A stretch of DNA of 32,000 nt. Source: Megasphaera elsdenii DSM 20460. GTDB taxonomy: Bacteria; Bacillota; Negativicutes; Veillonellales; Megasphaeraceae. Below the pieces are notes generated by a model. That model made no database searches and was not told where the DNA came from. It saw only the letters and a program-made list of their open reading frames with translations. The DNA lies in contig NZ_CP027570.1 in NCBI RefSeq assembly GCF_003010495.1, positions 60,001 through 92,000 of the forward strand, in the 5' to 3' direction. Each line of letters starts with the position of its first letter. Position 1 is the first letter of the stretch. Positions 7,525-32,000 of the stretch are shown one piece after another. The translations under genes and the position numbers were made by a program.

Positions 7525-8091
7525 TCACCCGCGGCAGTCCTTTACCATCCCGCCAAGGCGGCTCACGAGGCCCGTCGTCGATTCATTCGGCTTGGGAAAA
7601 CGGCGCAGGGCGGTCATGGCTTCGACATAACAGAAGAACTCTTCCATGGCCGTCTCGATCCGCCCCAGGGTCTGGCCGTCGATGTGCTCGATGAGGGCCA
7701 GGTCGTGCTGTTCATAGCGGTTGATGTAGCCGTAGAGCGAACAAAACGTACCGGGCCGCTTGGTGTAGGAACAGAAAAAGCAGTATTCCACCATGGCGTC
7801 GCATTTCTTGAGCGTATCCTGCCGTTCGACGCCGGCAAATTCCTGCCGTTCCTGGATGATCGTCTTGATCCAGTTGTTCAAGACGCCTTCGAAGAAAGCG
7901 AACAAGGAAAGGAGCGCCGCCCGGTAATAGCGCCGGGCCAGGAACGTCCCTTTCTTGGTTCCCTTCTCCTGCTGCATAGCAGCCCGTTTCTTAAATGTAC
8001 AATAATCCTTCCACAACTCTTCATAAATGGAAGCATGCAATATATCCATATCACCATTATGGAAAATAGTGACATCAATCTTAGCCTTCAT
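7525..8091 (-). CDS. Hypothetical protein, 188 aa, no family recognised
   Basis: This is a clean ORF with an AGGAGGG RBS overlapping the yerC stop. It is co-directional and tightly packed between the yerC-like gene and the kinase. It is Cys/Phe/Tyr-rich and has no signal peptide. Confidence 0.55.
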   Translation of the reverse strand: MKAKIDVTIFHNGDMDILHASIYEELWKDYCTFKKRAAMQQEKGTKKGTFLARRYYRAALLSLFAFFEGVLNNWIKTIIQERQEFAGVERQDTLKKCDAMVEYCFFCSYTKRPGTFCSLYGYINRYEQHDLALIEHIDGQTLGRIETAMEEFFCYVEAMTALRRFPKPNESTTGLVSRLGGMVKDCRG

Positions 8092-8107: not shown

Positions 8108-8431
8108 CTACTTGGATAACTTCAGGAAATCCGGGTCCTTTTCGGCCATGCGCGTGAGGATTTTCTCATAGCCGCCGCTGCCGTAGACCAGGCAGCGCTT
8201 GATGCGGCTGATCGTCGCCGTGCTGGCACCGGTCTTCCGGACGATGTCTTCATAGATATCGCCGGCCTTGAGCATGCGGGCCACTTCCAGGCGGGCCGAA
8301 ATGGCCTTCATTTCCTGAATGGTACAAAGGTCTTCAAAAAATTCATAACATTCGTCGACACTTTTCAATTCCAAAATAGCACGAAACAGCTGATCGTGCA
8401 AATGATCTCGCAATTTTTCATTCACTGCCAT
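8108..8431 (-). CDS. yerC: YerC/YecD family TrpR-like DNA-binding protein
   Basis: MAVNEKLRDHLHDQLFRAILELKSVDECYEFFEDLCTIQEMKAISARLEVARMLKAGDIYEDIVRKTGASTATISRIKRCL is a characteristic YerC/YecD pattern. The start is ATG 8431 with an AGAGGGA RBS. The ORF-track extension to 8527 runs through the promoter. Confidence 0.85.
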   Translation of the reverse strand: MAVNEKLRDHLHDQLFRAILELKSVDECYEFFEDLCTIQEMKAISARLEVARMLKAGDIYEDIVRKTGASTATISRIKRCLVYGSGGYEKILTRMAEKDPDFLKLSK

Positions 8432-8483
8432 GACAATCCCTCTTTCTATGACCATTTCCTTTAGTTCGTTAAACACTAAAAAT

Positions 8484-8512
8484 ATTATACGGCATGACCA
8501 GGAATCTGTCGA
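8484..8512 (-). promoter_or_regulatory. Sigma-A type promoter for yerC-like gene
   Basis: The minus strand has TCGACA, a 17-nt spacer and TATAAT. Confidence 0.55.
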
Positions 8513-8566
8513 GGGCGTCTCTATCATTCATCCCAAATCATCCAAATACCCACCGGGATGTCTACA

Positions 8567-8635: not shown

Positions 8636-11600
8636 CTACATGGCAAAGAGGTCGATCTGTTCATCTTCGGGAAGATCGCCCAGGCAGCCTTCCTGGCTCA
8701 TGACGTCGACCAGGGACTGGGACACTTTGCCGCGCATCTTGAGGTCGGCCTTGGAACTGAACGGCGCCTGCTCGCGGGCCGATACGATCTGTTCGGCTAC
8801 GTTGGCGCCCAGGCCGTCGATGGCCGTAAAGGGCGGCAGGATCTTGCCGTCGCAGATGGTGAACTTCGTCGCCGCCGAGCGGTTGATATCGACGTTCATG
8901 AAGGAAAAACCGCGCAGGCTCATTTCCTTGGCCAGTTCCAGCGCCGAATAGAGGTCCTGCTCGATCTTCGATGCGCTCTTGCCCTTGGCGGCGATTTCCT
9001 TCATGGCCCGTTCCTGCCCTTCCAGGCCGTGGATCATAGCCGACAGCTTGAAGGCCTTGGCGCGAATCGTGAAGAAAGCGCAGTAGTAGGCCAACGGCTG
9101 GTTGATCTTATACCAGGCGATGCGGAAAGCCATCATGACGTAGGCCACGGCGTGGGCCCTCGGGAAGAGGTAGCCGATCTTATGGCACGAGTCGATGAAC
9201 CACTGCGGGATATGGCCGGCTTTCAGCTCCCCTTCGTAGTCCGTCGTCTTCTGGCCCAATTTATTGAGCTTGTCGATGCCCTTGCCCTTACGGACATTTT
9301 CCATGACCTTGAAACTCGTCTTGGGCTTGATGCCGTGCTGGATGAGATAGTTCATGATGTCGTCACGCGTCGAGACGGCTTCCTTCAGGGGAACCGTGCC
9401 CGACGTAATCAGGTCCTGGGCATTGTTCAGCCAGACGTCGGTGCCGTGGGAGAAACCGGAAATGCGGACCAATTCAGAAAAGGTCTTGGGCTTGGTGTCG
9501 ACGAGCATCTGGCGGACGAAAGACGTGCCAAATTCCGGGATGCCCAGGCTGCCGACTTTCGAGCCCAGCTCTTCCGGCGTCACGCCCAGGGCCTTGGTCG
9601 AACTGAACAGGCTCAAGGTGGCCGGGTCATCAAAGGGAATGGTCGTCGCCTTGATGCCGGTCATATCTTCGAGCATACGGATGACCGTCGGATCATCATG
9701 GCCGAGGATGTCGAGCTTGACCAGACGGCCTTCGATGGAGTGATAATCGAAATGGGTCGTAATGATGCCGCTGTCCTTCTTGTTGGCCGGGTACTGGACG
9801 GGCGTGAAATGATGGACGTCCATATCGCGGGGAATGACCATGACGCCGCCCGGATGCTGGCCTGTCGTATTCTTGATGCCCGTGCAACCGGCGACGAGGC
9901 TGTTGACGTAAGCGTCATTGACCTTGATGCCCTTGGCTTCGGCCCACTTCATGACATAGCCATAGGCCGTCTTGTCCTTCACAGCACCGATAGTCCCGGC
10001 GCGGAAAACGTTGTCCTTGCCGAACAGTTCTTCTGTATACTTATGGGCTTTCGGATGGTATTCGCCAGAGAAATTGAGGTCGATATCAGGGACCTTGTCG
10101 CCGTCGAAGCCCAAGAAGATAGCGAAAGGAATATTATGGCCGTTCTTATGAAGTGGCGTACCGCACTGTGGGCAGACCTTGTCCGGCAAGTCGAAACCGC
10201 CGCCCACTTCGCCGTGCGTAAAGAATTCGCTCCACTGGCATTTCGGGCAGACATAATGAGGCGGCAAAGGATTGACTTCGGTAATATCCGACATGGTCGC
10301 CACGAAGGACGAGCCGACAGACCCACGGGAGCCGACGAGGTAGCCGTCATCGTTGGAGTGCTTGACCAGCTTGTGTGCAATGTAATAGAGGACGCCGAAA
10401 CCATGGCCTAAAATGGACGTAAATTCTTCTTCCAGCCGGTCTTCGACGATTTTCGGCAGCGGGTCGCCGTAAATTTCATGAGCCTTTTTATAACACATGT
10501 TCTTCAGCGCTTCCGATGACCCGGCGATTTGCGGGAAATAGAGCGTTTCCTTCGGTACCGGCCGGCAGTCGGCAATCATATCGTTGATCTTATTGGGGTT
10601 GGTAATGACCACTTCCCGCGCCCGTTCTTCGCCGAGATAGGCAAATTCCGCCAGCATCTCGTCTGTCGTGCGCAGGTACAGATCCGGCTGAAATTCGGCA
10701 TCCTTGAAGCCCTTGCCGGTCATGAGGATTTCCCGGTAAATCTTGTCTTCCGGGTTCATGAAATGAGCATCACACGTGGCGACAGTCAATTTCCCCAAAT
10801 CATCGCCGAGCTTGAGAATCGTCCGGTTGATGTCGCGCAGGCCTTCTTCATCGGCGACGAAGCCTTCGCGGACGAGGAAGCCGTTGTTGGTGAGGGGCTG
10901 GATTTCCAGATAATCGTAGAACGACGCGATTTTCTTCAGCTCTTCATAAGGCAGCTTCTTCTGGACCATGGACCGCACCAGTTCGCCGGCTTCACAAGCC
11001 GAACCCAGGATGAGGCCTTCGCGGTATTCCGACAGGACCGCCCGGGGGATGCGCGGCCGGCCGCGGTAGATATATTTCAGATGGGAAATGCTGACCAGTT
11101 TATAGAGATTGCGGATGCCGATCTGGTTCTTGGCCAGGATGATGATGTGGTACGACTGGTCGATCTTATCGTCAAAGAGATAGCCTTCCATGCCGTAAAT
11201 GACCTTGACGTTGTTGGTCTTATCCGTCGAAATTTCCTGGAGCAGCGGGAACGACTGGACGACGCCGTGGTCGGTGACGGCGACGGCCGGATGGCCCCAC
11301 TTCTTGATAGTCTTGATGAGCTGCTTGACCGTGATCAGGGCGTCCATGTCGCTCATGACCGTATGCAGGTGGAGTTCGACGCGCGGCGTCGGATTGTGGT
11401 CTTCCCGTTCCACCGTGCCGCCGTCGGCTTCCATCATGTCGTAGGCCATGAGGACGTAGTCGTTCTGGTAATTATCATACTGGATATTGCCGTGGACCCG
11501 GACATAGACGCCGGGCTTGAGCTTCTTGACCAGGTTGTCGTATTCTTCCGGCGTCAGCGTATTCTTGCGGCGGTACTTGCCGCCACCGCCCTGATTGCTG

Positions 11601-12274
11601 ACGTCGAGGAACTTCTTGGCCGAAATACCGTTGGTGCTGTCGGCCATCTGGAAGGTCAGGAGGGTACGTTTCGACTTGAGCTCGCGGAACTCGACCTTGA
11701 CGACCTTGCCCTTGAGGATGACGTCGTTCTGTTCCTCGCCGAGGACGTCGTTGATGGAGACGGCATCGCCGCCAAAGGCCCGGCCCATCCAGACCCGGCT
11801 GTCACTGCCAGTCTTGGTGCCGCTGCCCTTGCTGCCCTTCTTGGCGCTGCTGTCGCCGCTCTGGGACGCCGACTGGCAGGCCTTCTTGTAATCGGCATCG
11901 TCGTACAATTCATCGTCGACGTCGTAAATGGCATCATAGCAGTCTTCGTGGGGAATCCCGTAGCCTTCCATATCGTCAGTGGAAATATCGGCGACCTGAC
12001 GCAGCGGGTCGTTGTCGGGTACGGCCAGGGACATGTCGCCGCCGTGGAAAACAGACGTCACGCGGTGTTCGACAGATACCGTCCCATCCAGGCCCAATTT
12101 GCGGCAGACCCGGTCGCGGAGCAGGTCCATGTCGCCGATAGCATAAGGCGACTCGGTCTTGACATGCCAGGCATGGCCGGCCAGATCCGCCGCAATCGAA
12201 GCGATGGTCACGGAACGCCCGCCATCGGCGGGAATCAAAATATCATTTTTAGGAACAATATGCCAGACTTTCAT
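8636..12274 (-). CDS. polC: DNA polymerase III alpha subunit, PolC type, lacking the internal 3'-5' exonuclease domain
   Basis: The OB fold is N-terminal to the PHP domain (VILKGKVVKVEFRELKSKRTLLTFQMADSTNGISAKKF). PHP motifs are present (RVELHLHTVMSDMDA, HPAVAVTDHGVVQSFP). The PolC zinc module is present (YVCPKCQWSEFF...CPQCGTPLHKNGHNIPFAIFLGFDGDKVPDIDLNFSGEY). The protein is 1212 aa, against about 1430 aa for classical PolC. Confidence 0.93.
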   Translation of the reverse strand: MKVWHIVPKNDILIPADGGRSVTIASIAADLAGHAWHVKTESPYAIGDMDLLRDRVCRKLGLDGTVSVEHRVTSVFHGGDMSLAVPDNDPLRQVADISTDDMEGYGIPHEDCYDAIYDVDDELYDDADYKKACQSASQSGDSSAKKGSKGSGTKTGSDSRVWMGRAFGGDAVSINDVLGEEQNDVILKGKVVKVEFRELKSKRTLLTFQMADSTNGISAKKFLDVSNQGGGGKYRRKNTLTPEEYDNLVKKLKPGVYVRVHGNIQYDNYQNDYVLMAYDMMEADGGTVEREDHNPTPRVELHLHTVMSDMDALITVKQLIKTIKKWGHPAVAVTDHGVVQSFPLLQEISTDKTNNVKVIYGMEGYLFDDKIDQSYHIIILAKNQIGIRNLYKLVSISHLKYIYRGRPRIPRAVLSEYREGLILGSACEAGELVRSMVQKKLPYEELKKIASFYDYLEIQPLTNNGFLVREGFVADEEGLRDINRTILKLGDDLGKLTVATCDAHFMNPEDKIYREILMTGKGFKDAEFQPDLYLRTTDEMLAEFAYLGEERAREVVITNPNKINDMIADCRPVPKETLYFPQIAGSSEALKNMCYKKAHEIYGDPLPKIVEDRLEEEFTSILGHGFGVLYYIAHKLVKHSNDDGYLVGSRGSVGSSFVATMSDITEVNPLPPHYVCPKCQWSEFFTHGEVGGGFDLPDKVCPQCGTPLHKNGHNIPFAIFLGFDGDKVPDIDLNFSGEYHPKAHKYTEELFGKDNVFRAGTIGAVKDKTAYGYVMKWAEAKGIKVNDAYVNSLVAGCTGIKNTTGQHPGGVMVIPRDMDVHHFTPVQYPANKKDSGIITTHFDYHSIEGRLVKLDILGHDDPTVIRMLEDMTGIKATTIPFDDPATLSLFSSTKALGVTPEELGSKVGSLGIPEFGTSFVRQMLVDTKPKTFSELVRISGFSHGTDVWLNNAQDLITSGTVPLKEAVSTRDDIMNYLIQHGIKPKTSFKVMENVRKGKGIDKLNKLGQKTTDYEGELKAGHIPQWFIDSCHKIGYLFPRAHAVAYVMMAFRIAWYKINQPLAYYCAFFTIRAKAFKLSAMIHGLEGQERAMKEIAAKGKSASKIEQDLYSALELAKEMSLRGFSFMNVDINRSAATKFTICDGKILPPFTAIDGLGANVAEQIVSAREQAPFSSKADLKMRGKVSQSLVDVMSQEGCLGDLPEDEQIDLFAM

Positions 12275-12275
12275 A

Positions 12276-12480
12276 TATTTTCCTTTCTATGTCAACTACT
12301 CCCGACTAAAGTCGGGAGCTTGTAGGTCGGAACTGCATAGGTACTAACGGCATCAAAAGATGTCTTCCTAAATCCGCCTACATCATCGGGTGGCTGACAA
12401 CACCCGCTTTGCTAAGGAGTTTACTCCGAAGCAGTTGTTATTCTTTCATAATGAGGATGGTTATCTCCGGAAATCCACAT
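12276..12480 (-). ncRNA. Predicted omega RNA (reRNA) of TnpB: scaffold from the tnpB 3' end through the right-end hairpin, guide in the flanking DNA
   Basis: By analogy with characterised TnpB systems, the RNA overlaps the tnpB 3' end and the right end of the element. Several stem-loops are visible here, for example GGTGTTGTCAGCCACC and the right-end hairpin. The boundaries are not determined. Confidence 0.4.
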
Positions 12481-13647
12481 AGTTCCGAGGAGTTGGATAT
12501 TCATAGCTCCGATACGGTCATCGTTAGATCTGTAACCACACTGACAACGATATAAGTGTTTGTGATGGTCACGGTTTTCTTTGTGGATAGTACCGCATTT
12601 GGGACAACGTTGAGAGGTATACTGAGCAGATACCATCAGAACTTCGGAACGATTTTCATGAGCCTTATAGGTCAAGAATTGCTCCAACTGATAGAACGCC
12701 CAGCTGCGCAGGTCGTAATTTTGTTTAGCCGTTTTTGAAAGATGGGACTCTTCGAAGCTAACACCGGTCAAATCTTCAAGCACAAACAGCGTATCTTTGC
12801 CGTATTTTTCAACGAGTGTCTTAGAAATCCGATGGTTTACATCAGACATCCAACGGTTCTCTCGTCCTGAAATGGCCTTGAGTCTATGCTTTGCTGATTT
12901 TGTGCCTTTAGACTGGAGCTGGCGGCGGACTTCCTGAAATTTATGGCGTTTAGTAGCCATCTTCTTACCAGAGACGAATTCAGTTTTGCCCTGTTCGTCG
13001 TAACTAACAGTAAGAAAACGTAATCCACGGTCAATACCGACAACGTGACGGACGTTTTCTTTCTGAAAATCTTCGACAGCTTGGGTTACGGGAATATGGA
13101 GATACCATAAACCTTTGAGTTCGACCAGTTTTGCTGTTCCAAGGTCATAAGCGCCATCAAGATATTCCGCAAAATGCTTGCCCTCAAAGGCGCATTTAGT
13201 TCTTTTCCCGAGCGTATTGATGGACAGAACCTGTCCGCTATCAACGAAGCTATAATCACGATTGCGAACCAAGTCCGCTTGTGGGCGGCTAAAGAACACA
13301 GGCTTCCAAAGCCATTCCCATGTCTTGGCGATGCGTTTCCAGTTGCCATTCTCATCCTTATATCTGTAAGGATTTTGGAAGAGCTGTTGTTTTACCGTCT
13401 TATATCTGGCAATCGTCGTCTTGATAGAAGACTGGGCCAGCTGCGATTTCAGACCGAACTGGCTGCGCAGGTCACTGTACAGCTCTCTGTTGAGACTTTG
13501 GTAGGTCATGTTAAATCGGTGGTCGAAGATGTACTGCGACACGAAGTTACAAGCCTGACGGTATTGTTCCGTCATCTGACGGAACAGCGTCTCTTGTTCG
13601 GGAGTAACGTGTATACGAAGTTTTATCGTTTTAGTTAGGCTAGACAT
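12421..13647 (-). CDS. tnpB: IS200/IS605-family RNA-guided endonuclease TnpB (OrfB), apparently intact
   Basis: RuvC-like motifs are present: VVGIDRG, FVLEDL and SNDDRIGAMNI. The zinc finger is CPKCG...CQCG. The N-terminus KLRIHVTPEQETLFRQMTEQYRQACNFVS is typical of OrfB/TnpB. Confidence 0.9.
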   Translation of the reverse strand: MSSLTKTIKLRIHVTPEQETLFRQMTEQYRQACNFVSQYIFDHRFNMTYQSLNRELYSDLRSQFGLKSQLAQSSIKTTIARYKTVKQQLFQNPYRYKDENGNWKRIAKTWEWLWKPVFFSRPQADLVRNRDYSFVDSGQVLSINTLGKRTKCAFEGKHFAEYLDGAYDLGTAKLVELKGLWYLHIPVTQAVEDFQKENVRHVVGIDRGLRFLTVSYDEQGKTEFVSGKKMATKRHKFQEVRRQLQSKGTKSAKHRLKAISGRENRWMSDVNHRISKTLVEKYGKDTLFVLEDLTGVSFEESHLSKTAKQNYDLRSWAFYQLEQFLTYKAHENRSEVLMVSAQYTSQRCPKCGTIHKENRDHHKHLYRCQCGYRSNDDRIGAMNIQLLGTMWISGDNHPHYERITTASE

Positions 13648-13910: not shown

Positions 13911-15455
13911 TTATTCCTCATCGGCCGTATCGGCCGTATCGGCTGTATCGGCTGTATCGGCCGCCGGGACATTGAAGTCCATCATGTCGTGGGGCGCGTT
14001 GAGAAGCGGGTCCTGCGGTTCCAGGTCGGCCGTGCTGACGACTTCTTCGCTGTCGTCGCCGGGCGTGAGGATAATTTCATCATTCGGGTCGTAATGTGAC
14101 TCGATGGTATCGACATGGCGGTCGCCGTCGCTGTAAGCCACGGTCCGGCGGATAGTCACGTCGTGGCCGTCATAGCCTTCCTGCTTGCGCTTATCTTCGG
14201 TCACACTATCATCGTGCTTCTTGATGACCTTATGGGGCAGGTTCTGGAGATGCGTCGTTTCAAAGGACACACTGCACGTATCGGCGTGATTGCCCAGGAT
14301 GTACGTCGTCACCGTATTCTTGCCGGCCACCGTATAGACACAGACCGGGTGCTGGAAAGGATTGGTAAAGGAGAAGTCCAGGCCGTCATCGGCGACGGTC
14401 GCATCCATGCCGACGGGCACATACGCGGCCGGAGCGAAATGCGGTTCCCGGCTGGCAATGAACAGACCGGCCCGCAGTGCGGCATTGAACAAAGTCGTGC
14501 TGACCTGGCAGACACCGCCGCCGGTGGACTGTTCCAATTTATTCTCGAAATACGACGGCGCCGGCTTATAGCCCTTGTCCGCCGTCCGCGTGCCGACATA
14601 CTTATTGAAAGAGAAATCCTTCTGAGCCATGACGACGGCGTGGTTCAGGCGCTGCTGGGCCAGGCGGATGTTGACGTTGCGGTCGGGATTGGTATCGTCA
14701 AAATGCGTCGTATAGTACGACAAGACTGTGTCGATATCCTTGAGGTCATCGGCCTTGATGTCCGCCCCTTCCCGGCTGTCTACGGGAACGTCCAGGGTAT
14801 CCGTCTTGCCCGTATGCAGTTCATCGGTCACGGCGTCCTTCAGCTTACCCGTATTGATGACGATGCGGTCCTTGGCGTCTTCGATAGCAACAGTCTTCTG
14901 GTCATCCTTGACATAGGCATAGGCATTCTGCGGGTCCTTATCGTACTTGTCGTGGACATCGGACAAGACCTTATCCAATTTATCGTCGTCGACGGCAATG
15001 GCCAAAGGCACATCCTTGCCATGGCGGAGCGTCGTCACCACATCGGCCACGCGCTGCCAGGGCAGGCCCCGGCGGCCGACGAGATGCAATTCATCGTCGA
15101 TATAGGCCCGATCCAATTTAGCCCCCAGTTCATCGAGATCCAGCGTCACATCGACACCGTCCGTCGCCAGGCGCAGCTTCTTATCTTCTACATCCTTCTC
15201 ATGGAGATCCAGATAATTGGTAATATCATCGGGCGTCATATCGGCAATGGATTGGCCGTTGAGGGTCACCATCTGTTCCGCCTTGCTCTGGGCCGCAAAA
15301 AAGCCGCCGAACCCAATCACACACAAAGCGACAATCACAGCCGCCCGCTTCTTCCAGGACGGCCTTTCCTTTTCCGGAGGCAGCCCGTGCTTTTCCCGGT
15401 ACCGCCGGCGATATTCCTTCATCCGTTCTTTCCGTGCTCGTTCTTCGTCAGTCAC
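13911..15455 (-). CDS. VanW-family protein with an N-terminal membrane anchor
   Basis: The VanW core is FSFNKYVGTRTADKGYKPAPSYFENKLEQSTGGGVCQVSTTLFNAALRAGLFIASREPHF...GMDATV. One TM helix is present (AAVIVALCVIGFGGFFAA). The start is GTG 15455 with an AAAGGCAGG RBS. Confidence 0.85.
   Translation of the reverse strand: MTDEERARKERMKEYRRRYREKHGLPPEKERPSWKKRAAVIVALCVIGFGGFFAAQSKAEQMVTLNGQSIADMTPDDITNYLDLHEKDVEDKKLRLATDGVDVTLDLDELGAKLDRAYIDDELHLVGRRGLPWQRVADVVTTLRHGKDVPLAIAVDDDKLDKVLSDVHDKYDKDPQNAYAYVKDDQKTVAIEDAKDRIVINTGKLKDAVTDELHTGKTDTLDVPVDSREGADIKADDLKDIDTVLSYYTTHFDDTNPDRNVNIRLAQQRLNHAVVMAQKDFSFNKYVGTRTADKGYKPAPSYFENKLEQSTGGGVCQVSTTLFNAALRAGLFIASREPHFAPAAYVPVGMDATVADDGLDFSFTNPFQHPVCVYTVAGKNTVTTYILGNHADTCSVSFETTHLQNLPHKVIKKHDDSVTEDKRKQEGYDGHDVTIRRTVAYSDGDRHVDTIESHYDPNDEIILTPGDDSEEVVSTADLEPQDPLLNAPHDMMDFNVPAADTADTADTADTADEE
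13920..13964 (-). repeat. In-frame 9-bp tandem repeat (5 units) encoding (ADT)n at the VanW-family C-terminus
   Basis: The plus strand reads ATCGGCCGT, ATCGGCCGT, ATCGGCTGT, ATCGGCTGT, ATCGGCCGC. It translates to ADTADTADTADTADEE. Confidence 0.9.
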
Positions 15456-15498
15456 ATTCTAACCTGCCTTTACTCATTATATTCATTTTATAGCTCAC

Positions 15499-15537
15499 GC
15501 GGCATTAAAATGCCGCTTCGTAGGGGCCGTCCCTACC
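15499..15537 (-). repeat. Small hairpin (GCGGCAT-TAAA-ATGCCGC) plus a partial GC-rich repeat unit overlapping the holA stop codon
   Basis: TCGTAGGGGCCGTCCC lies at 15518-15533. The holA TAG is at 15533-15535. Confidence 0.6.
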
Positions 15538-16552
15538 TGCAATACAGGCAAATGAGAGGGCCTATATCCTCGGGCGATGCCATACCGCGGCGGATATGGA
15601 GCTGGAGCGTAAAAATTTGGCAAATACAACTTTCCAACTCTTCTATTTTCCAATAAGATGCCACTTTTTGCAAGTGGTATAAGACATATTTTACACTGCG
15701 GCCCTTATTGATGGTCTGCAAAATCTGTTCACACTGGTGCTGTCCGGCGTGGGCCCGGCGCAACTCCTTATAGGCCAGGAGCAGGCGCAGGCGCGACAAC
15801 ATATAGCCGGTATTCTTCAAAAACGCATCTTGCCGGCTGAAGAGGCCTTCCAAAAAAGGCAGGGTCTTGTCCCCATTGCGCCGCAAAAATTCATCCATAA
15901 AAGTGAACAAATTCTTTTCCATCGTCCCGGCAAAGAGGTCCTGCAAATCGGGCACATCAACAGTCTGCCGGCTATCGGGCACGGTAATACACAATTTCTC
16001 CAGCTCCGAAAAGACATAGAGCAGGGAAATATCGCCCCAGGTCTGGAACAGAGCCCGCAAATAGGCTACCGCCCGGCTGGTCAGGCGCTTGCCTTTCCCT
16101 TTTAGGTAGTCCGTCACATAGGGCATGACCGTCTTTTCCGTCACCGCTTCAGCAGCTACGACATCGGCCATGGGCTTCAAGGCCTTAAAAAAAGCACTGC
16201 CCGTATCCATCTTGCCCTTAGTATAAAACAAAAGGCTGTTCTCGTCACTGAGCCGCCGGGCTTCGTCCAGGAACCACTGCTCTTCCTTGGTGAGCTTACT
16301 CCGCGACCGGCCGCCGCGCTTGAGCGGCAGAAAGGGACAGTCATACCAAATCGTGACTGTCCCACTGCTAAAGAGACTCGCCCCCTGGAAGGATTCGACG
16401 ACTGTCGCCGCTACCGCATCCTTCTGGAAAGACTGGACCTCGGCCTCGCCGCCGGCCCGCTTATTAGCAGCCGCCAGGAAACGCCGGCGCCCGTCTTCCA
16501 TGACATAAGGTTCTGTCCCATAAATAATCATTATATGTTTCTTATATTCCAT
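15533..16552 (-). CDS. holA: DNA polymerase III delta subunit
   Basis: The protein is 339 aa with an N-terminal IIYGTEPYVMEDG clamp-loader delta-like pattern. Its position directly after comEC is conserved in Firmicutes. The RBS is GAGGAA. It overlaps the comEC end by 22 nt. Confidence 0.8.
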   Translation of the reverse strand: MEYKKHIMIIYGTEPYVMEDGRRRFLAAANKRAGGEAEVQSFQKDAVAATVVESFQGASLFSSGTVTIWYDCPFLPLKRGGRSRSKLTKEEQWFLDEARRLSDENSLLFYTKGKMDTGSAFFKALKPMADVVAAEAVTEKTVMPYVTDYLKGKGKRLTSRAVAYLRALFQTWGDISLLYVFSELEKLCITVPDSRQTVDVPDLQDLFAGTMEKNLFTFMDEFLRRNGDKTLPFLEGLFSRQDAFLKNTGYMLSRLRLLLAYKELRRAHAGQHQCEQILQTINKGRSVKYVLYHLQKVASYWKIEELESCICQIFTLQLHIRRGMASPEDIGPLICLYCR

Positions 16553-18642
16553 GATTGTTCCTCATCAAAAGTAGCTACCTGCCACTGTCCCCGCCAGCGA
16601 TACAGCCGGATCTGACCGTCCCGGCCCGGAGTATAACAGGGCCTTCCATGAAATGCCGCCGTTTCGCCCCATTCCGTCAAGGCTTCATCGCCGCGGCGCG
16701 AAGCATAGACAATGGTCGCCATGGCCGATACGGGGAAATCCCGGCCATTCCAGCCCGCCAGGGACCGAAATTCCAGACACAACGGCCCGTCGGGAAAAGC
16801 CGACGACGCTGACGGCAGACAGCGAAAAGGCACGTCCTCCGCCCCTTGCTCCGGCAGGAAATCAAAATGGCGCCGCAGCAAGGCTAGCGTATAGCCTGCC
16901 CCGTCGCCATCGACACGACATTGGCGAAGACGAAAGACACCCTGAGCCCGCAAAGCCGGCGTCACGACGACAGCTGCCTGGTCGGGGTTGGCGAATCTCG
17001 ATTTATTATACCATATATCGGCCGATTTATCTTCATAAATGACCGCCGTCACCTGATCCCGGCCGGCATCGAGGACTAAGACTTCGGGCCCAGACAGCCG
17101 CAGGAACCATGCCGCTGCCAGACAAAGGGCCAGCCCGGAACCGATGCGCCTGCGAAAAGCCGGACAAAAGCCAAAAGCTACGACCAGATACCAGGCCAGC
17201 ACAGCCAAGACCGACGGCTGCCCGCCCCAGAAGCGGCTCCCCGGCAGGGCTGCGATGAAGGCGTTGCCCTTCAAAGCCAGAGCCAGCAAGGGCTTGATGA
17301 GCCACAACACCATATCGGCACCGACGCCCCACAAGAGGGACAGGACCGATGCCAAAAGCCCCAGGACCATGACCAGGTCCAAGGCCGGGGCTACCAGAAT
17401 ATTGGCAACCAGTGAATAGACTGGAAAGGAAAAGAAAGCCGAAAACAAGAGGGGCACGACTAAGATCTGCGCCGCCACGCAGACTGTCAGGCAATCCCGC
17501 AAAAAAGCAGGCAGTGCCGAAAGCCAGGCACTGACAGGACGCTGAAAGAGGATGATGCCGGCCGAGGCCCCGCAGGAAAGGCGAAAACTCAAATCAAAGA
17601 CCAGATAGGGACTGTAAATCAGCATAGCCGCCATGGCCAAAGCCAGGGCATGACCGGCCAAATACTCGCGCCGCACAGTCAGGCTCAAGGCACTAGCGGC
17701 ACCCATGAGAGAAGCCCGGACGACAGGCGACGAAAAATCCGAAAGCGCTCCGTACAGGAACAAAAAACTCACAGAAACCAGGCACAACCCGCGCGGGCGC
17801 AATCCCAGGGCGCGGCCCATGAGCTGGATGACAGCCAGCAACAATGCCACATGGGACCCGGACACGGAGAGGATGTGAATCAGTCCGGTCGTGCTGAACG
17901 ATTCCAGCAGGCCTGGCGGTAATTCATCGTAATGACCGCCGAAGAGCAGACTAGCAAGCACAGGCGCATAGGATTCGCCGAGGACAGCCTTATACCGCCC
18001 GGTCAGTGCCTGGCGCAAGGCCTGCAAAAAAGAGTCCCAGCGACCCAGTGGAGCCGTCACGGACACCTTTTTCCCATCATCGGCAAATAAACGCAGCCAA
18101 ATCGCCTTTTCCCGGTCGCGATGGAATGCATCATACATGCCGTCGTTCTTATAATATGTCAAAGGCCGGCTGTCGCCCGTGACGACGACTGTACTGCCCA
18201 GGATCTGCGGCTCAGGCAAAGTCACGTAGGCACAACCACTTCCCGGCTGTACGTCCTCTTCTCCGGCATAGGCATAGCGCCGGACTTGCATGACATACCT
18301 TCCGACAAGGCCCTTCTCCGTAGCATAAGTACTGCGCCGCTCTTGCAGCGTCCCTTCTACGGTCAACTTGGCCCCGACAGCCTGATGCGGCAGGGCTTCA
18401 TAACGATTCGCTTCCAGCTGGAGACGCCCCGCCCCCAAGACCAAAGCAACCAGAAACAGACAGACGGCTAGGACGACACGGCTTCGGGACCGGAAAAAGA
18501 AGATTCCCAACAGGGCCAGCCAAAAGATAAAAAGCCAAAGAATCAGGGGCAAAGTGAACGCATCGGCCAAGATCATCCCTGTCGCCAAGGCCAGGACCAG
18601 GGACAAGCTGACCCATTCAGGTTTAATGTTATGTCCCATCAT
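16531..18642 (-). CDS. comEC: DNA internalisation competence protein ComEC/Rec2
   Basis: It is a polytopic membrane protein with the competence-domain motif GLIHILSVSGSHVALLLAV. The start ATG 18642 overlaps the comEA TGA (ATGA); an alternative GTG lies at 18648. The C-terminal region lacks the metallo-beta-lactamase HxHxDH motif. Confidence 0.88.
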   Translation of the reverse strand: MMGHNIKPEWVSLSLVLALATGMILADAFTLPLILWLFIFWLALLGIFFFRSRSRVVLAVCLFLVALVLGAGRLQLEANRYEALPHQAVGAKLTVEGTLQERRSTYATEKGLVGRYVMQVRRYAYAGEEDVQPGSGCAYVTLPEPQILGSTVVVTGDSRPLTYYKNDGMYDAFHRDREKAIWLRLFADDGKKVSVTAPLGRWDSFLQALRQALTGRYKAVLGESYAPVLASLLFGGHYDELPPGLLESFSTTGLIHILSVSGSHVALLLAVIQLMGRALGLRPRGLCLVSVSFLFLYGALSDFSSPVVRASLMGAASALSLTVRREYLAGHALALAMAAMLIYSPYLVFDLSFRLSCGASAGIILFQRPVSAWLSALPAFLRDCLTVCVAAQILVVPLLFSAFFSFPVYSLVANILVAPALDLVMVLGLLASVLSLLWGVGADMVLWLIKPLLALALKGNAFIAALPGSRFWGGQPSVLAVLAWYLVVAFGFCPAFRRRIGSGLALCLAAAWFLRLSGPEVLVLDAGRDQVTAVIYEDKSADIWYNKSRFANPDQAAVVVTPALRAQGVFRLRQCRVDGDGAGYTLALLRRHFDFLPEQGAEDVPFRCLPSASSAFPDGPLCLEFRSLAGWNGRDFPVSAMATIVYASRRGDEALTEWGETAAFHGRPCYTPGRDGQIRLYRWRGQWQVATFDEEQSWNIRNI

Positions 18643-19163
18643 AAGCACACCTGGTCTTTCAGCTTGGCAAACTTCGCCGGGCCGATCCCTTTGACTTTCT
18701 GCAGCTCTTCGATACTGCCAAAAGAGCCATGTTCCTGACGATAAGCGATGATGTTGGCCGCCATAGCCGGTCCGATGCCAGGCAGCGCCGTAAGGGCCTT
18801 TTCATCGGCCCGGTTCAGAGATACCTTGCCGGCTTCTGCCGGATTTTCGGGAATCCCCTGGAAATCATAGGGCACGTGGATATGGGCACCGTCGTCAGCC
18901 CGGTCCGCTAAATTGACGGCTCTCGTATTGGCATAGGCGATCATGCCGCCAGCTGCTTCTACGGCTTCACCGGCCGTTTTTCCCGTTTCCAAGGCGTAGA
19001 GCCCGGGATTCTTGACAGCCCCCGTGACATAGACAAAGGCTTTTTCCGGCAGCGGTTCTTCCACAGCCGGCGGCGGCTCGCTAACAAGGGACTCAAAGAC
19101 AGGGGCAAACTGGAACAGGGCTACCCCCAATAAGACCAAAGCCAGGACTACCATTTTCTTCAT
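18639..19163 (-). CDS. comEA: Competence protein ComEA (DNA receptor, SLBB + helix-hairpin-helix)
   Basis: The C-terminal tandem HhH is LNRADEKALTALPGIGPAMAANIIAYRQEHGSFGSIEELQKVKGIGPAKFAKL. An N-terminal TM anchor is present. ATG 19163 has an AGGAG RBS 8 nt upstream; the ORF-track GTG is at 19172. Confidence 0.9.
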   Translation of the reverse strand: MKKMVVLALVLLGVALFQFAPVFESLVSEPPPAVEEPLPEKAFVYVTGAVKNPGLYALETGKTAGEAVEAAGGMIAYANTRAVNLADRADDGAHIHVPYDFQGIPENPAEAGKVSLNRADEKALTALPGIGPAMAANIIAYRQEHGSFGSIEELQKVKGIGPAKFAKLKDQVCL

Positions 19164-19175
19164 GCTTATCACTCC

Positions 19176-26574: not shown

Positions 26575-26800
26575 AACATACTTAAAGTGAACGTACCCTC
26601 GCCTACAGAGGCGGGGGCTTCCTGCTTCAGCGAGAACAGCACCACTGACTCTGAAGAGTTATGGCGACTTACACTCTCTCCACAGGCGTAAGTTTCCGTG
26701 CGACCCACGGTACTCTATGCGTTACATTAGGCGGCGGATATGCGCCTAGCTTCCTCTCTAATATTTATAGCAGCGTTCTTATCTCTGTCATGATGACTGC
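26575..26800 (-). ncRNA. Predicted omega RNA of the second TnpB (tnpB 3' end through the right-end hairpin plus flanking guide)
   Basis: This is by analogy with characterised TnpB systems. About 110 nt of structured non-coding sequence lies between the tnpB stop (26727) and the right-end hairpin. The boundaries are not determined. Confidence 0.35.
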
Positions 26801-27839
26801 CACATTTCGGGCAATCCCATTCTCGTATAGACAAATCTTTCGTTTCATTGTTCTGGTAACCGCAAACATGGCATAGCTGACTACTAGGATACCATTTGTC
26901 TATCTTGATAAACTGTTTACCTTGCCAAGCCAGCTTATATTCCAACATGTTTGTGAACATATTCCAGCCATTGTCGGCTACAGATTTACCAAAACTGAAC
27001 TTACCACCTTTCTTGTGCTTCGCCATAGCTTTGACGCTGATATCCTCAATACCTATGGCATCATAGTGGTCTACCAAGTAGCGGGCTTTTTTGTGCAGGA
27101 AATCGCGGCGTTGATTGGCAATTTTTTCGTGGAGTTTAGCTACCCGTAACCTTTGTTTATCTCGGTTATGACTTCCGTTTTGCCGCTTAGAAAGTTTTCT
27201 TTGTGCCTTGGCTAATCTTTTCTCGGCTTTCCTCAAGAAATGGGGATAGTCCGCATCCTCTTCATCGGAAGCCACATATAGTCCGTGCATGGCAAAATCA
27301 AGTCCAAGAAATTTCTTCGGCATTATAGGGAGTATTTGGTTTTCGTACTCCACCAAAATACTGATGTAATATTTTCCTGATGATGTTTTGCTTATGGTTA
27401 CAGTCTTTATCGTGCTGTTTTCCATCAATGGACGATGCAGGCACAATTTCACCAAACCTATTTTTGGCAGCCTGACCTTGTTCCCCTCGATTCTTACAGA
27501 ACCGTGTTGGTTGTTCGTAGAATACGAAGCATGACCTGTCTTTTTCGATTTGAAGCGTGGCTTGCCAAAATGCTTTCGATTTCTAAAAAAGTTATTGTAT
27601 GCTTTGTTCAGGTTCATCTGTGCATTGGCAAGAGCAAGGCTGTCGACTTCTTTCAGCCAAGGGAATTCTTCCTTGTACTGTGCAGGAGTATTATTCAGTT
27701 TCTTACCGGTTTCCTTATAGTAATCAAGGCGGTCTCCAAGCATCTTGTTATAGATGAATCGGACACAGCCGAAAGTCTTGGCAAACATAATTTTTTGTTC
27801 AGTTGTTGGATAGAGCCTGTATCGGTATGCCTTATTCAC
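26727..27839 (-). CDS. tnpB: IS200/IS605-family RNA-guided endonuclease TnpB, apparently intact
   Basis: The N-terminus is NKAYRYRLYPTTEQKIMFAKTFGCVRFIYN. RuvC motifs are LGLDFA, IGIEDI and DRDKNAAINI. The zinc finger is CHVCG...CPKCG. The start is GTG 27839 after the RBS AGGCAGGTGA. The ORF-track extension to 27938 reads through tnpA remnant sequence. Confidence 0.9.
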   Translation of the reverse strand: MNKAYRYRLYPTTEQKIMFAKTFGCVRFIYNKMLGDRLDYYKETGKKLNNTPAQYKEEFPWLKEVDSLALANAQMNLNKAYNNFFRNRKHFGKPRFKSKKTGHASYSTNNQHGSVRIEGNKVRLPKIGLVKLCLHRPLMENSTIKTVTISKTSSGKYYISILVEYENQILPIMPKKFLGLDFAMHGLYVASDEEDADYPHFLRKAEKRLAKAQRKLSKRQNGSHNRDKQRLRVAKLHEKIANQRRDFLHKKARYLVDHYDAIGIEDISVKAMAKHKKGGKFSFGKSVADNGWNMFTNMLEYKLAWQGKQFIKIDKWYPSSQLCHVCGYQNNETKDLSIREWDCPKCGSHHDRDKNAAINIREEARRISAA

Positions 27840-27844
27840 TATAA

Positions 27845-28094
27845 TCACCTGCCTTGATTTTCTATGTATTTTCGTATTATGGGAGCGCCGCCTGTTGTCA
27901 GCAGGCAATAGCTTTTTGACCAAAACATTTCCTTTCAAAGCTTACATCTGACTTCCGGAAAATCTTTTTTCTATGTGGACAAATATACCTTTTGCATATT
28001 GGCTCATCTGATCAGAAAACACTTTGCGGCGGTATTTTACCACTAGAACCAGCTGGTAATAGAATAAGAATACTGAATAGTTATTACTATCCAA
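27845..28094 (-). pseudogene. tnpA: IS200/IS605 Y1 transposase TnpA remnant with an internal deletion and frameshift
   Basis: Hand translation gives an N-terminal piece, (L)DSNNYSVFLFYYQLVLVVKYRRKVFSDQMSQYAKGIFVHIEKRF, ending at a stop. A different frame gives a C-terminal piece, FWSKSYCLLTTGGAPIIRKYIENQGR*. The HUH-containing middle part is missing. Confidence 0.75.
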
Positions 28095-28239: not shown

Positions 28240-29223
28240 TTAGGTTAATTTATTTTGCTTGGCAATGTCAGCAATAGCTTCTAAGGATAACTTAGTATAC
28301 TGAGCAATCTTTTCAAAAGGTACGCCATCTTTCAGCATTTCCAGTACGTCGTCTTGTTTTCCTAAATCCCAACCACGTTTTTCTCCTACTTCTTCCCCCA
28401 GTTTACGTCCGCGTTTTTCTCCTCGCCGTTCCCCGCGCCGTTCAATACCTTCGCTCAAGTTACACATTGTCGCCACTCCTTTCTCTAAGTGCGGTGTCAT
28501 TGTTACGTTAAATTCTTTCGCCAATACTTTCTGCTTTTCTTGAGGACTGATGTTATCCAAGAGCAGCATGTTTAGCAACCGCAAAATACCTTTTAACTGC
28601 CTATGGCTTTTGCTTCCCAGACAGACCAAGACGATACTGATCAAATCGTAATGACTCCGCTCGGCCTGGGTATGCCCGATTAGATGTTTCTCAGTCAGTT
28701 GGTAACGTGAAATATGGTACTCCCATTTTTTCGTTGGCATCGTGCAGATCCAGATGGAATAGACCTTCTGAATTTTTTCATAATGGGATTTTACGAAAAC
28801 CGTGCCATACTGACTGGAAATCATGCGACCGCAATAGTAGACGGCCCGCTTTAGCAGCGGATAGCCCGGGTTAAAATCGTTCTGCGCTTCCAGATTAATG
28901 ATGAGTTGAATCATTTTCCCATCCACGGGAGCTACGGCATGGAACCGGATGTCGTAATACACCGTTCCTTCCGCTCCAGATTTGTCTTCCGTCTGCTCAC
29001 TTTCGATGCGTGGTGAAATGGTTTCCGGTTCCACGGCAATGCGGCTGATACTCGGTTCGCCCTGGATATAGCGCCACGCAATATCCAGCAAACTACAATC
29101 CTTAAATTCTTCCGTGCAGGACTTGAGGATATGGGCCATGATTTCCCGTTCCGAAAGGACCCGCTTGCACGCCTCGTCATACGCTTTCTTTTGCGCTTTG
29201 GCCTGTTGTGCCGAATCGGACAT
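28240..29223 (-). CDS. Rpn-family recombination-promoting nuclease / putative transposase (PD-(D/E)XK, YhgA-like)
   Basis: The core is GTVYYDIRFHAVAPVDGKMIQLIINLEAQNDFNPGYPLLKRAVYYCGRMISSQY. The C-terminal arginine/glutamate repeats (ERRGERRGEKRGRKLGEEVGEKRG) and the tail LEMLKDGVPFEKIAQYTKLSLEAIADIAK are typical of this family. Confidence 0.75.
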   Translation of the reverse strand: MSDSAQQAKAQKKAYDEACKRVLSEREIMAHILKSCTEEFKDCSLLDIAWRYIQGEPSISRIAVEPETISPRIESEQTEDKSGAEGTVYYDIRFHAVAPVDGKMIQLIINLEAQNDFNPGYPLLKRAVYYCGRMISSQYGTVFVKSHYEKIQKVYSIWICTMPTKKWEYHISRYQLTEKHLIGHTQAERSHYDLISIVLVCLGSKSHRQLKGILRLLNMLLLDNISPQEKQKVLAKEFNVTMTPHLEKGVATMCNLSEGIERRGERRGEKRGRKLGEEVGEKRGWDLGKQDDVLEMLKDGVPFEKIAQYTKLSLEAIADIAKQNKLT

Positions 29224-29898: not shown

Positions 29899-32000
29899 CT
29901 ATTTCTTGCCGACGTACTGACGGATCATTTCTCCCTGTTCCTTGACCAGAGCTTCCAGTTCGGCAATCTTCTTATCCTGCTGATCCACCGTATTTTCCAG
30001 GCTTTCAATCTTCTTAGCCATGGCCGTCTTCGACGTCGTGATGCCGCTGCCACCTTGACCAATCTTGAAGCTCAAGCCGGCGTTAAACATATTTTCCCCG
30101 TTGCCGAAATTCGTACCCAGACTGAACATGGTATCTTCATTGGGACGATAGAAGGCACCCAAAGCGACACTGTTGGCATTGCGGTAATTGCCGTAACCAA
30201 CGGCGAAATCCCACTTATCATTAGGGTCGAAGTCCAATGGATGAAGCGCTGCCAAAGCAGCCGCACCAGCACCGACCTTGTTGACGCGGTTATCGAGGTC
30301 AGAAACGCGGTTGTTGATGTGGTAAATGGATTCCGTGTTGGCAGCGACCTGATGATCCAAAGCCGTTATGTTTTGGCCAGCTGTGTTAGCCTGTCTGATG
30401 AAGATTCCGTCCTTTTCGACTCTCGTTTCCTTGTAGACGGTCCCGGCATTGACGGCGTTCTTAGAGCCTTCCTCAATCGTGGTGTTGGCTACATTCTAGA
30501 TGGTCGTGTCTTCCCGCAGCGTAACGGTCTTGCTGTCGTCACCGTCATAGTTGACGGCGTTCTTGGTCGCAGCTTGCAACTGGTCTTCCGTAGCAGCCTG
30601 ACCGGACGTAATGTTCTTGGCGTCCCAGGTCTTGTTAGTCAATCCACCAATCGTGCCTTTGTCATCCTTGTTGATGGTGACCTTGCCAATGGCAGCGGAA
30701 CCTGTCACTTCGAGGTCTTTTGTTGTAATCTTATTAGCTGCTGTAACTGAATCGACATTCAGATCTTTATTCAGGGAAATCTGATAATTCGCTGCTTCTC
30801 CCTCTTTGGCAATATTTTCAACAGAAAGATTAGCATCTTCCGTTGATACAATAGTATGCTTGCCTGCAGCTTCTGACGCATATTTAATGGCTTCGTCAAG
30901 TTTTCCAATGGAAGTCGTGACGTCTTCACCTTTTTTAACGTACTTCGTGCTGCTGTAGTCAAGATTCCCCACTTTGTTATCTACATGATTGACAGCATCT
31001 ACTACGGTCGTTTTACCTTCAGCATTTTTAATATCTGCATTCAAATCCGTTACATTGCCTACATCACTGGCTTTGGCTACATCCGTAATCCGGACGGTAC
31101 CAACTTTTCCCGTCTTATCTACAACGTCTATCGATACGCCCTGCACTGACTGGCCATCCTTGTCTGTAATAGTACCAACGGCATAATCTCCAGCCGTGAT
31201 ATGTGTATCATTGGCATCGGCTGTGGCCTGTGTCATCGCTTCGTGGAGCTGAGCTTCCGTAGCAGCCTTTGTAGACTGAGAATAATCTTTCGTTTTATCC
31301 CAGGTCGTATTAGACAAACCTGTAATCACATTATGCTGACCGTCTACAGTCACATTACCAGAAGTAACAGTTGTGGCTTGCAGACTGTTGAGACCTGTAA
31401 TGTCTTTTGCAAGACGAATATTCAAGGTATCATCATCTTTTCTTACAACACCAATGTTAGCAGCGTCAACAGTTTCGGTCGCTCCTCCGACAATATTAAG
31501 TTGCTCATTCAACTTTCTCGATATGACTTTGCTATTATCTGACTTTCCGTCATCACCAGCAAATGTTAAACCATCCGTACTTTTAGCCAATCCGTCCGTA
31601 TTTAAGCCAATCGTATATTCGATACCCTTTCCTTTGTTAACGCCTGTGTTATCTACTGTAATACGACTGTTTGCAGCCGCTTTGACAGTCGCATGCTTGG
31701 CAGCCTCTATAGCTACGGCATAAAGTTCGCTCCCATTGACGGCATCCGTACTCGTAGGCGTAACACGTCCGGCGGCTACGTTCGTAATAGTCCGTACCAC
31801 TTTATCATTACCTACACTAACGATTCCGCTTGGCCACCCGCCGCTTACACTATAGTTGCTGTTAAGATTCGGAATCGTAAGAGACATGACATTGTAATCA
31901 TTCAAGTTTCCCGAAGCTTCCGAACCTTGGCCCAGGGCAACGGAATTTTCTACTGAAACCTTTGCATCTTTCCCAATGGCAACAGATTTTGCACCGGAAA
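29899..32000 (-). pseudogene. Trimeric autotransporter adhesin (YadA/Hia-like); 5' end outside the window; interrupted by one in-frame TAG at 30496-30498
   Basis: The YadA membrane anchor is AGAAALAALHPLDFDPNDKWDFAVGYGNYRNANSVALGAFYRPNEDTMFSLGTNFGNGENMFNAGLSFKIG. A coiled-coil tail follows (KKIESLENTVDQQDKKIAELEALVKEQ). Upstream stalk and head repeats are present (SVAIGKDAKVSVENSVALGQGSEASG). ORFs 30496-31905 and 29899-30360 are in the same frame, and the frame stays open to position 32000. Confidence 0.8.

Follow-up and report, generated by a model that had tools for sequence, protein, structure and literature searches.

Canonical PolC replicases, such as those of Bacillus subtilis and Geobacillus kaustophilus (Gka) and the full-length PolC of PDB entry 9qpc, carry a DnaQ-like 3′-5′ exonuclease (Exo) domain of ~200 amino acids (aa), which is inserted in a loop lining the primer path to the metal site of the PHP domain (PMC5636811). 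PolCs without this domain were described by Timinskas, Balvociute, Timinskas & Venclovas (Timinskas et al. 2014, NAR, PMC3919608), who found that ~6% of PolCs lack Exo and that these occur in Clostridia and Negativicutes, except for one extra copy in Thermotogae. Such Exo-less PolCs have an OB-PHP-Pol3-HhH (helix-hairpin-helix) order with no Exo in the PHP domain and a conserved PHP metal site, and they are always found in genomes pairing PolC with DnaE1 (PMC3919608). Here we examined the polC gene of Megasphaera elsdenii DSM 20460 within a 32-kb stretch of its chromosome (positions 60,001 to 92,000 of contig NZ_CP027570.1, hereafter referred to as the window), and found that the encoded protein shows no architectural difference from these enzymes. 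The Exo-less architecture as such is thus already known, having been published in 2014 (PMC3919608).

Megasphaera PolC lacks the Exo domain

The product of the uninterrupted polC open reading frame (ORF) was readily assigned to the PolC family, as it scored 1484.8 bits against the NCBIfam PolC equivalog model NF001688 (cut-off 873) and 1364.6 bits against TIGR01405 (cut-off 1043), while its scores against the NCBIfam DnaE models stayed far under their cut-offs. The top PDB match was 3f2b (1198 bits). An earlier note on this DNA, made from its letters alone, had given the length of the protein as 1212 aa, which proved correct, and had claimed that the intrinsic Exo domain is missing. In agreement with this claim, Pfam returned no match to RNase_T (PF00929) in the 1212-aa protein, even at E≤1. 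The nearest Exo-bearing relative (cluster P0126, 54% identity), which served as a positive control, yielded RNase_T at 117 bits. Likewise, a hidden Markov model (HMM) built from 95 PolC Exo inserts found nothing in the six frames of the window (best E-value 0.77).

The position of the missing domain was apparent from several alignments. The NF001688 match fell into two stretches, the second of which aligned residues 373–1210 of the query to profile positions 613–1444. Against the full-length PolC 9qpc, residues 296–376 aligned to positions 360–438 of the chain and residues 373–559 to positions 638–824, leaving ~199 residues of the 9qpc chain without a counterpart in Megasphaera PolC. The engineered Exo-deleted Geobacillus construct 3f2b, on the other hand, gave one continuous alignment, in which its GSGSG linker falls at the query junction. 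The canonical Exo would occupy the loop G364–Y375 (GYLFDDKIDQSY), and this loop between the PHP ligands E363 and H376 measures 12 aa in the query and 12–29 aa in 120 close homologues, versus ~200–220 aa in Exo-bearing PolCs. The earlier note had described two PHP segments as being joined directly at aa ~357–394. The peptide in question, VIYGMEGYLFDDKIDQSYHIIILAKNQIGIRNLYKLVS, is indeed present and runs across the junction, although it spans aa 358–395 and the position had therefore been given one residue off. Nucleotides 11147–11175 of the window correspond to F367–H376, i.e. to the junction loop. The DnaQ-like Exo is missing cleanly from its place in the PHP domain, between the segments G-x-E and H-x-x-L-A.

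The linker residues that flank Exo in canonical PolC (x-D-D before the insert and x-x-H after it) are kept at the junction, which argues for deletion rather than primitive absence of Exo. An ancestral absence was rejected on these grounds and because, in the tree described below, the Exo-less forms branch from among clostridial PolCs that carry Exo. A clean deletion of the DnaQ-like Exo from a PHP surface loop would have left the 12-residue loop and an uninterrupted PHP barrel. Engineered PolC-ΔN-ΔExo proteins (Gka 3F2B; S. aureus, PMC3656037) resemble this outcome, in that Exo was excised and a short linker placed at the position of the natural Megasphaera junction. The PHP barrel and polymerase activity survive this removal, and the engineered enzymes stay fast polymerases, with a kpol of 330 per second (PMC3656037). 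However, these constructs are laboratory deletions with an already impaired PHP, whereas the Megasphaera PolC is a natural full-length enzyme with an intact PHP site.

The short PolC is genuine and typical of Negativicutes

An artefact, be it a ~600-bp collapse in the assembly, a frameshift that conceals Exo in another frame or a pseudogene, has a practically negligible chance of explaining the short PolC, and this reading is excluded. An identical 1212-aa product is encoded on the finished 2,474,718-bp chromosome HE576794.1 (GCA_000283495.2), and 149 index blocks of independent assemblies, of both isolate and metagenome origin, contain the identical protein, so that the collapse raised by the earlier note did not take place. 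Nor was an exonuclease HMM match, the other finding that the note had held against itself, present within positions 8636–12274. Moreover, PolC orthologues from dozens of species match it in length, no Exo similarity was present in any frame of the window, and the polC ORF is free of interruptions, with a ratio of nonsynonymous to synonymous substitution rates (dN/dS) of about 0.07.

To the question in the earlier note whether this architecture is lineage-typical or already described, the answer is yes on both counts. PF00929 was absent from all of the 120 best homologues (1144–1293 aa where full-length), which include members of Megasphaera, Colibacter, Veillonella, Propionispora, Pelosinus, Sporomusa and Anaeroselena. 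A tblastn survey of 80 species genomes, covering Megasphaera, Veillonella, Selenomonadales, Sporomusaceae and Pelosinus among others, revealed matches to PolC without any Exo-sized gap. In this survey, Megasphaera elsdenii MSK.21.52 matched at 98% identity, consistent with the window being M. elsdenii DNA. The Exo-less PolC is lineage-typical for the class Negativicutes, and is also present in several uncultured Clostridia lineages.

The PHP metal site is intact

Alignments to Taq DnaE, Gka PolC and 9qpc revealed that all nine PHP metal ligands of Megasphaera PolC are intact, i.e. H302, H304, D311, H336, E363, H376, C427, D502 and H504. The resulting HHDHEHCDH motif is found in the query and in 119/119 homologues covering all nine ligand positions, and it satisfies the definition of an 'active' PHP (HHDHEH[C/H]DH) used in a 2026 survey of how PHP and DnaQ proofreaders are distributed over the bacterial tree (PMC12926913). 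The earlier note had reasoned that proofreading must come from the PHP domain or from a separate DnaQ, a framing that we judge to be correct, and had left the state of the PHP metal residues to be checked; as seen here, none of them is altered.

Ligand 8 in particular is an Asp (D502, in ATCDAHF), as in Taq DnaE (ATNDGHY), whereas it is an Asn in the Exo-bearing Bacilli-type PolCs 3f2b (Gka) and 9qpc (ATGNVHY). Structure 3e0d has an Asn in place of this Taq Asp. Gka PolC, with one mutated PHP ligand, has no PHP exonuclease activity, and in Mycobacterium tuberculosis (Mtb) DnaE1 the D226N substitution, at the equivalent of D502, abolishes activity (Banos-Mateos et al., PMC5636811). At the equivalent of C427, the C669Y substitution in C. 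thermocellum PolC creates a ~30-fold mutator (bioRxiv 10.1101/2021.07.30.454558). In comparisons of M. elsdenii with four other Megasphaera species, dN/dS amounted to 0.07–0.11 for the whole polC gene and to 0.02–0.06 for the PHP domain; the PHP ligands are under strong purifying selection.

Exo was lost repeatedly, mostly in PolCs with an intact PHP site

The relation between Exo state and PHP integrity was examined by searching 1.84 billion cluster representatives with PolC residues 171–1212 and taking the 150 PolC clusters with the highest similarity to the query. The 134 clusters of at least 1100 aa were aligned together with the query (135 in total), after which the insert between the columns of the E and H ligands in the MAFFT alignment was measured and scored with the Exo HMM. 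A canonical DnaQ-like insert was present in 104 clusters, of which 62 had an intact and 42 a non-intact PHP site. Seven clusters carried an insert of 142–291 aa without DnaQ similarity, all with PHP intact, and 24 had no insert, with PHP intact in 23 and not intact in one. The PHP site was therefore intact in 30/31 PolC clusters without a recognisable Exo versus 62/104 (60%) of those with Exo (Fisher p = 4e-5, uncorrected for phylogeny and with clusters taken as independent). The seven non-DnaQ inserts (P0140, P0145, P0171, P0183, P0205, P0208 and P0237) each scored at most 26 bits with the Exo HMM, and Pfam detected no RNase_T in the five of them that were tested. These inserts may represent decaying Exo domains or sequences that took their place.

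On a neighbour-joining tree of 854 core columns, Fitch parsimony needed 14 changes for the Exo-less state (13–20 in 60 bootstraps), which means that this state is derived and recurrent, and that Exo was lost many times independently. The few names available for other Exo-less clusters were Thermoclostridium sp., 'Clostridia bacterium' and 'Clostridiales bacterium', and those for the nearest Exo-bearing clusters were Christensenellales and Oscillospiraceae. The single Exo-less cluster with a non-intact site, P0231 (1178 aa; nine members, on contigs of up to 134 kb), has an 11-aa loop without Exo insert and a degenerate PHP (HRSLENSDQ), indicating that a PolC lacking any recognisable proofreader can persist.

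Probable proofreading by the PHP domain and its alternatives

Proofreading in cis by a metal-dependent 3′-5′ exonuclease of the PHP domain is, by analogy with DnaE-type enzymes, most likely the mechanism at work and the one best supported by these data. The PHP domain would then act as a trinuclear zinc-type 3′-5′ exonuclease, like that of Mtb DnaE1 and Thermus Pol III α (PMC5636811), which we propose as functional analogues of Megasphaera PolC. As in Megasphaera PolC, the PHP domain of these enzymes is uninterrupted and carries the HHDHEHCDH motif, with the equivalent of Mtb D226 being kept. Unlike Megasphaera PolC, they are of the DnaE type, with a C-terminal OB domain and no PolC zinc module, and their exonuclease activity has been demonstrated, whereas that of Megasphaera PolC is predicted. 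With the OB domain, zinc module, Pol3 core, HhH domain and putative clamp motif all retained, the kit for polymerisation is complete. From the conserved ligands, we infer that the PHP site of Megasphaera PolC is catalytically active and serves as its proofreader. Overall, that the M. elsdenii Exo-less PolC arose by Exo deletion and that its PHP proofreads in cis appears to be the best explanation, and one we consider rather probable. For the broader claim that Exo-less PolCs proofread solely via the PHP metal site, the Exo of clostridial-type PolC being redundant with an active PHP, we see the chances as evenly balanced. Such redundancy would explain why at least 13 decays or deletions of Exo happened nearly always in lineages with an intact PHP.

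Several points weigh against a proofreading PHP. Exonuclease activity of this site in Exo-less PolCs is a prediction from sequence. An intact PHP is also seen in the 62/104 Exo-bearing PolCs mentioned above, so that intactness alone is no proof of an operative proofreader, and the site could instead be structural or act as a pyrophosphatase. The loop along which the primer reaches the PHP site has a length of 29 aa in Mtb DnaE1, of 18 aa in Taq and of 9 aa in E. coli, and in Mtb the loop and β-hairpin residues S100, Y105, K136 and W137 guide the primer 3′ end into the site (PMC5636811). As the corresponding E363–H376 loop of Megasphaera PolC, with its 12 aa, is shorter than those of Mtb DnaE1 and Taq, the substrate could take a different route. 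Furthermore, the Fisher test assumes independent clusters and its sample consists of the 150 PolC clusters nearest to the query, while the search for a standalone DnaQ was confined to the window and to 10 kb on either side of polC.

The last point bears on the possibility that proofreading is provided in trans, by a separate DnaQ-family (DEDDh) exonuclease that binds PolC in the way ε binds E. coli DnaE, with the PHP being structural only. Bacterial proteomes contain on average more than three standalone DnaQ homologues (PMC12926913), so candidates are probably present in M. elsdenii, and both the intact PHP of most Exo-bearing PolCs, which does not by itself show use, and the shortness of the junction loop next to the primer-guiding loop of Mtb DnaE1 fit this arrangement. 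E. coli Pol III α, like Megasphaera PolC, is a polymerase polypeptide without a DEDDh domain. However, 5/9 of its PHP ligands are altered and it depends on ε, or DnaQ (PMC5636811), whereas Megasphaera PolC has its PHP intact and no DnaQ gene nearby. Indeed, no RNase_T- or DnaQ-like ORF was found in the window, either among the 20 neighbouring ORFs or with the six-frame PolC-Exo HMM, and the 10 kb on either side of polC are free of DnaQ genes in M. elsdenii, Pelosinus and Veillonella alike. Literature searches on dnaQ or essentiality in Megasphaera, Veillonella and Negativicutes likewise returned nothing relevant. The proofreaders listed for Clostridia-type PolC+DnaE1 systems are the PolC PHP, the DnaE1 PHP and the PolC DnaQ domain, with no standalone DnaQ (PMC12926913), and a partner in trans does not predict that nine PHP ligands are retained in 30/31 Exo-less PolCs. 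We therefore regard proofreading in trans as quite improbable.

Alternatively, PolC itself could go unedited, with DnaE1 and its intact PHP either doing most of the synthesis or editing PolC errors in trans, and mismatch repair dealing with what is left. Loss of Exo without replacement would then be possible, in line with the persistence of cluster P0231. This possibility was raised by Timinskas et al., who explicitly called PolC+DnaE1 systems uncharacterised; all Exo-less PolCs belong to such systems, and some Clostridia have DnaE1 only (PMC3919608). For M. elsdenii, the presence of DnaE1 is taken from Table 1 of that study. The strong purifying selection on polC, and the even stronger selection on its PHP domain, run counter to an unedited PolC, as does the position of polC in Veillonella, 4 bases after holA, which suggests a core replisome role. 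The absence of any variation at the nine PHP ligands within Negativicutes is also hard to explain for a functionless site, although a purely structural role would be possible. Taken together, an unedited PolC seems unlikely to us.

Domain architecture of Megasphaera PolC

The 1212-aa protein is the ordinary chromosomal PolC replicase of M. elsdenii, in its Exo-less rather than canonical form (Table 1). With canonical PolC it shares the domain order, the CPxC...CPxC zinc module, the DIDLN motif with its Asn, the HhH domain and the clamp motif, confirming the earlier note, which had listed an N-terminal OB fold, the PHP motifs and the zinc module as present. The order is of the PolC type, with the OB domain N-terminal to PHP, whereas in DnaE it is C-terminal. 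The Pfam tRNA_anti-codon match to the OB region (24.5 bits) remained under its cut-off of 27. In the active-site motif, D730 and D732 are the two catalytic Asp residues, and N734 is the Asn beside this pair that is specific to PolC (N970 in B. subtilis) and replaced by Asp in all DnaE groups (PMC3919608).

The N-terminal domain (NTD) of canonical PolC consists of two KH-like subdomains. Neither of the corresponding models, PF14480 and PF11490, was detected by Pfam in aa 1–176 at E≤1, and about half of this region (aa ~85–170) is of low complexity, acidic and rich in Ser and Gly. Matches to these models are kept in some other Negativicutes PolC homologues. The NTD subdomains are poorly conserved in general, with 7% of PolCs having no assignable NTD (PMC3919608).

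At the opposite end of the protein, the QIDLF pentapeptide is a putative sliding-clamp-binding motif, as judged from its fit to the clamp-binding consensus QL[SD]LF. Variants of the Q-x-x-L type are kept at this position across homologues.

Table 1. Features of polC and its surroundings, in coordinates of the 32-kb window.
Feature	Position	Strand	Residues or basis
PolC ORF	8636..12274	(-)	1212 aa, uninterrupted
N-terminal region	11747..12274	(-)	aa 1-176; ~80 residues structured-looking, then acidic Ser/Gly-rich low-complexity linker
OB fold	11435..11746	(-)	aa 177-280; alignment to 3f2b OB domain from residue 177
PHP domain, uninterrupted	10595..11386	(-)	aa 297-560; Pfam PHP 108.9 bits (300-453)
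Junction loop joining PHP ligands E363 and H376	11150..11185	(-)	G364-Y375, 12 residues; alignments
Pol3 core (palm, thumb, fingers)	9248..10510	(-)	aa 589-1009; Pfam DNA_pol3_alpha 188.3 bits, DNA_pol3_finger 87.1 bits
Zinc module CPKC...CPQC	10163..10249	(-)	aa 676-679 and 701-704; aligned with CPNC...CPRC of Gka PolC 3f2b
Polymerase active-site motif D730-I-D732-L-N734	10073..10087	(-)	aligned with PDIDLNFSGEY of 3f2b
Tandem HhH domain	8666..8905	(-)	aa 1124-1203; Pfam HHH_6 48 bits
QIDLF, putative sliding-clamp-binding motif	8645..8659	(-)	aa 1206-1210 (C-terminal); sequence
188-aa ORF	7525..8091	(-)	no Pfam match
Trp-repressor-family small protein	8108..8527	(-)	
Hairpin before polC	about 12299..12318		perfect, 8 bp
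Solo TnpB (IS605 OrfB / Cas12f-like TNB)	12421..13647	(-)	408 aa; 146 bp upstream of polC
VanW-domain gene	13911..15455	(-)	
holA	15533..16552	(-)	
Low-GC segment	26727..32000		GC 0.41-0.49 vs about 0.55 elsewhere in window
Second, unrelated TnpB	26727..27938	(-)	HTH_OrfB_IS605 domain
ORF weakly like PD-(D/E)XK transposase	28240..29223	(-)	
YadA-stalk adhesin-like ORF	30496..31905	(-)	

Genomic surroundings of polC

A solo tnpB gene lies 146 bp upstream of polC and was present in 6/6 M. elsdenii-type contigs inspected. One of these contigs (L004) has an entirely different set of genes upstream of TnpB, which thus marks a synteny breakpoint. The gap between polC and TnpB (12275–12420) contains a perfect 8-bp hairpin, CTCCCGAC-TTTA-GTCGGGAG, directly before the ribosome-binding site of polC. 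Because no sigma-70 consensus promoter was found in this gap, transcription of polC may start inside the insertion sequence remnant or run through it. In Veillonella (L088, 6022–13882), comEA, comEC, holA and polC are contiguous, the end of holA being located 4 bases before polC, while in M. elsdenii (13911–19172, minus strand) the VanW-domain gene and TnpB are inserted between holA and polC. In Pelosinus (L087), polC is found in a Bacillus-like polC-rimP-nusA-infB arrangement.

Downstream of polC, the Trp-repressor-family gene and the 188-aa ORF keep their position in all M. elsdenii contigs inspected. The low-GC segment at the far end of the window, which carries the second TnpB, the transposase-like ORF and the adhesin-like ORF, was probably acquired horizontally. 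An Rfam scan of the window gave no match.

Implications for Negativicutes

For genome annotation these findings have little consequence, as an Exo-less PolC is the normal PolC of Negativicutes. Beyond the description of Timinskas et al. (PMC3919608), the present analysis adds the exact junction residues, the intact PHP motifs in 119/119 close homologues, a minimum of 13 independent Exo losses in the set of 135 clusters, and candidate intermediate forms with decayed inserts. The fidelity of Exo-less PolCs, or of PolC+DnaE1 replisomes, is a question already posed in that study, to which we add the comparative argument that loss or degradation of Exo is almost never accompanied by loss of the PHP site. 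The findings are of minor practical interest for antibiotics directed at PolC, such as ibezapolstat, since the PolC of gut Negativicutes is structurally divergent.

A proofreading PHP predicts that D311, C427 and D502 of Negativicutes PolC are needed for 3′-5′ exonuclease activity and to keep the mutation rate low. Veillonella parvula is a genetically tractable member of this class. If the PHP is indeed the sole proofreader, Negativicutes would become the first experimental system for PHP proofreading in a PolC, and would show the exchange of two proofreaders within one polymerase.

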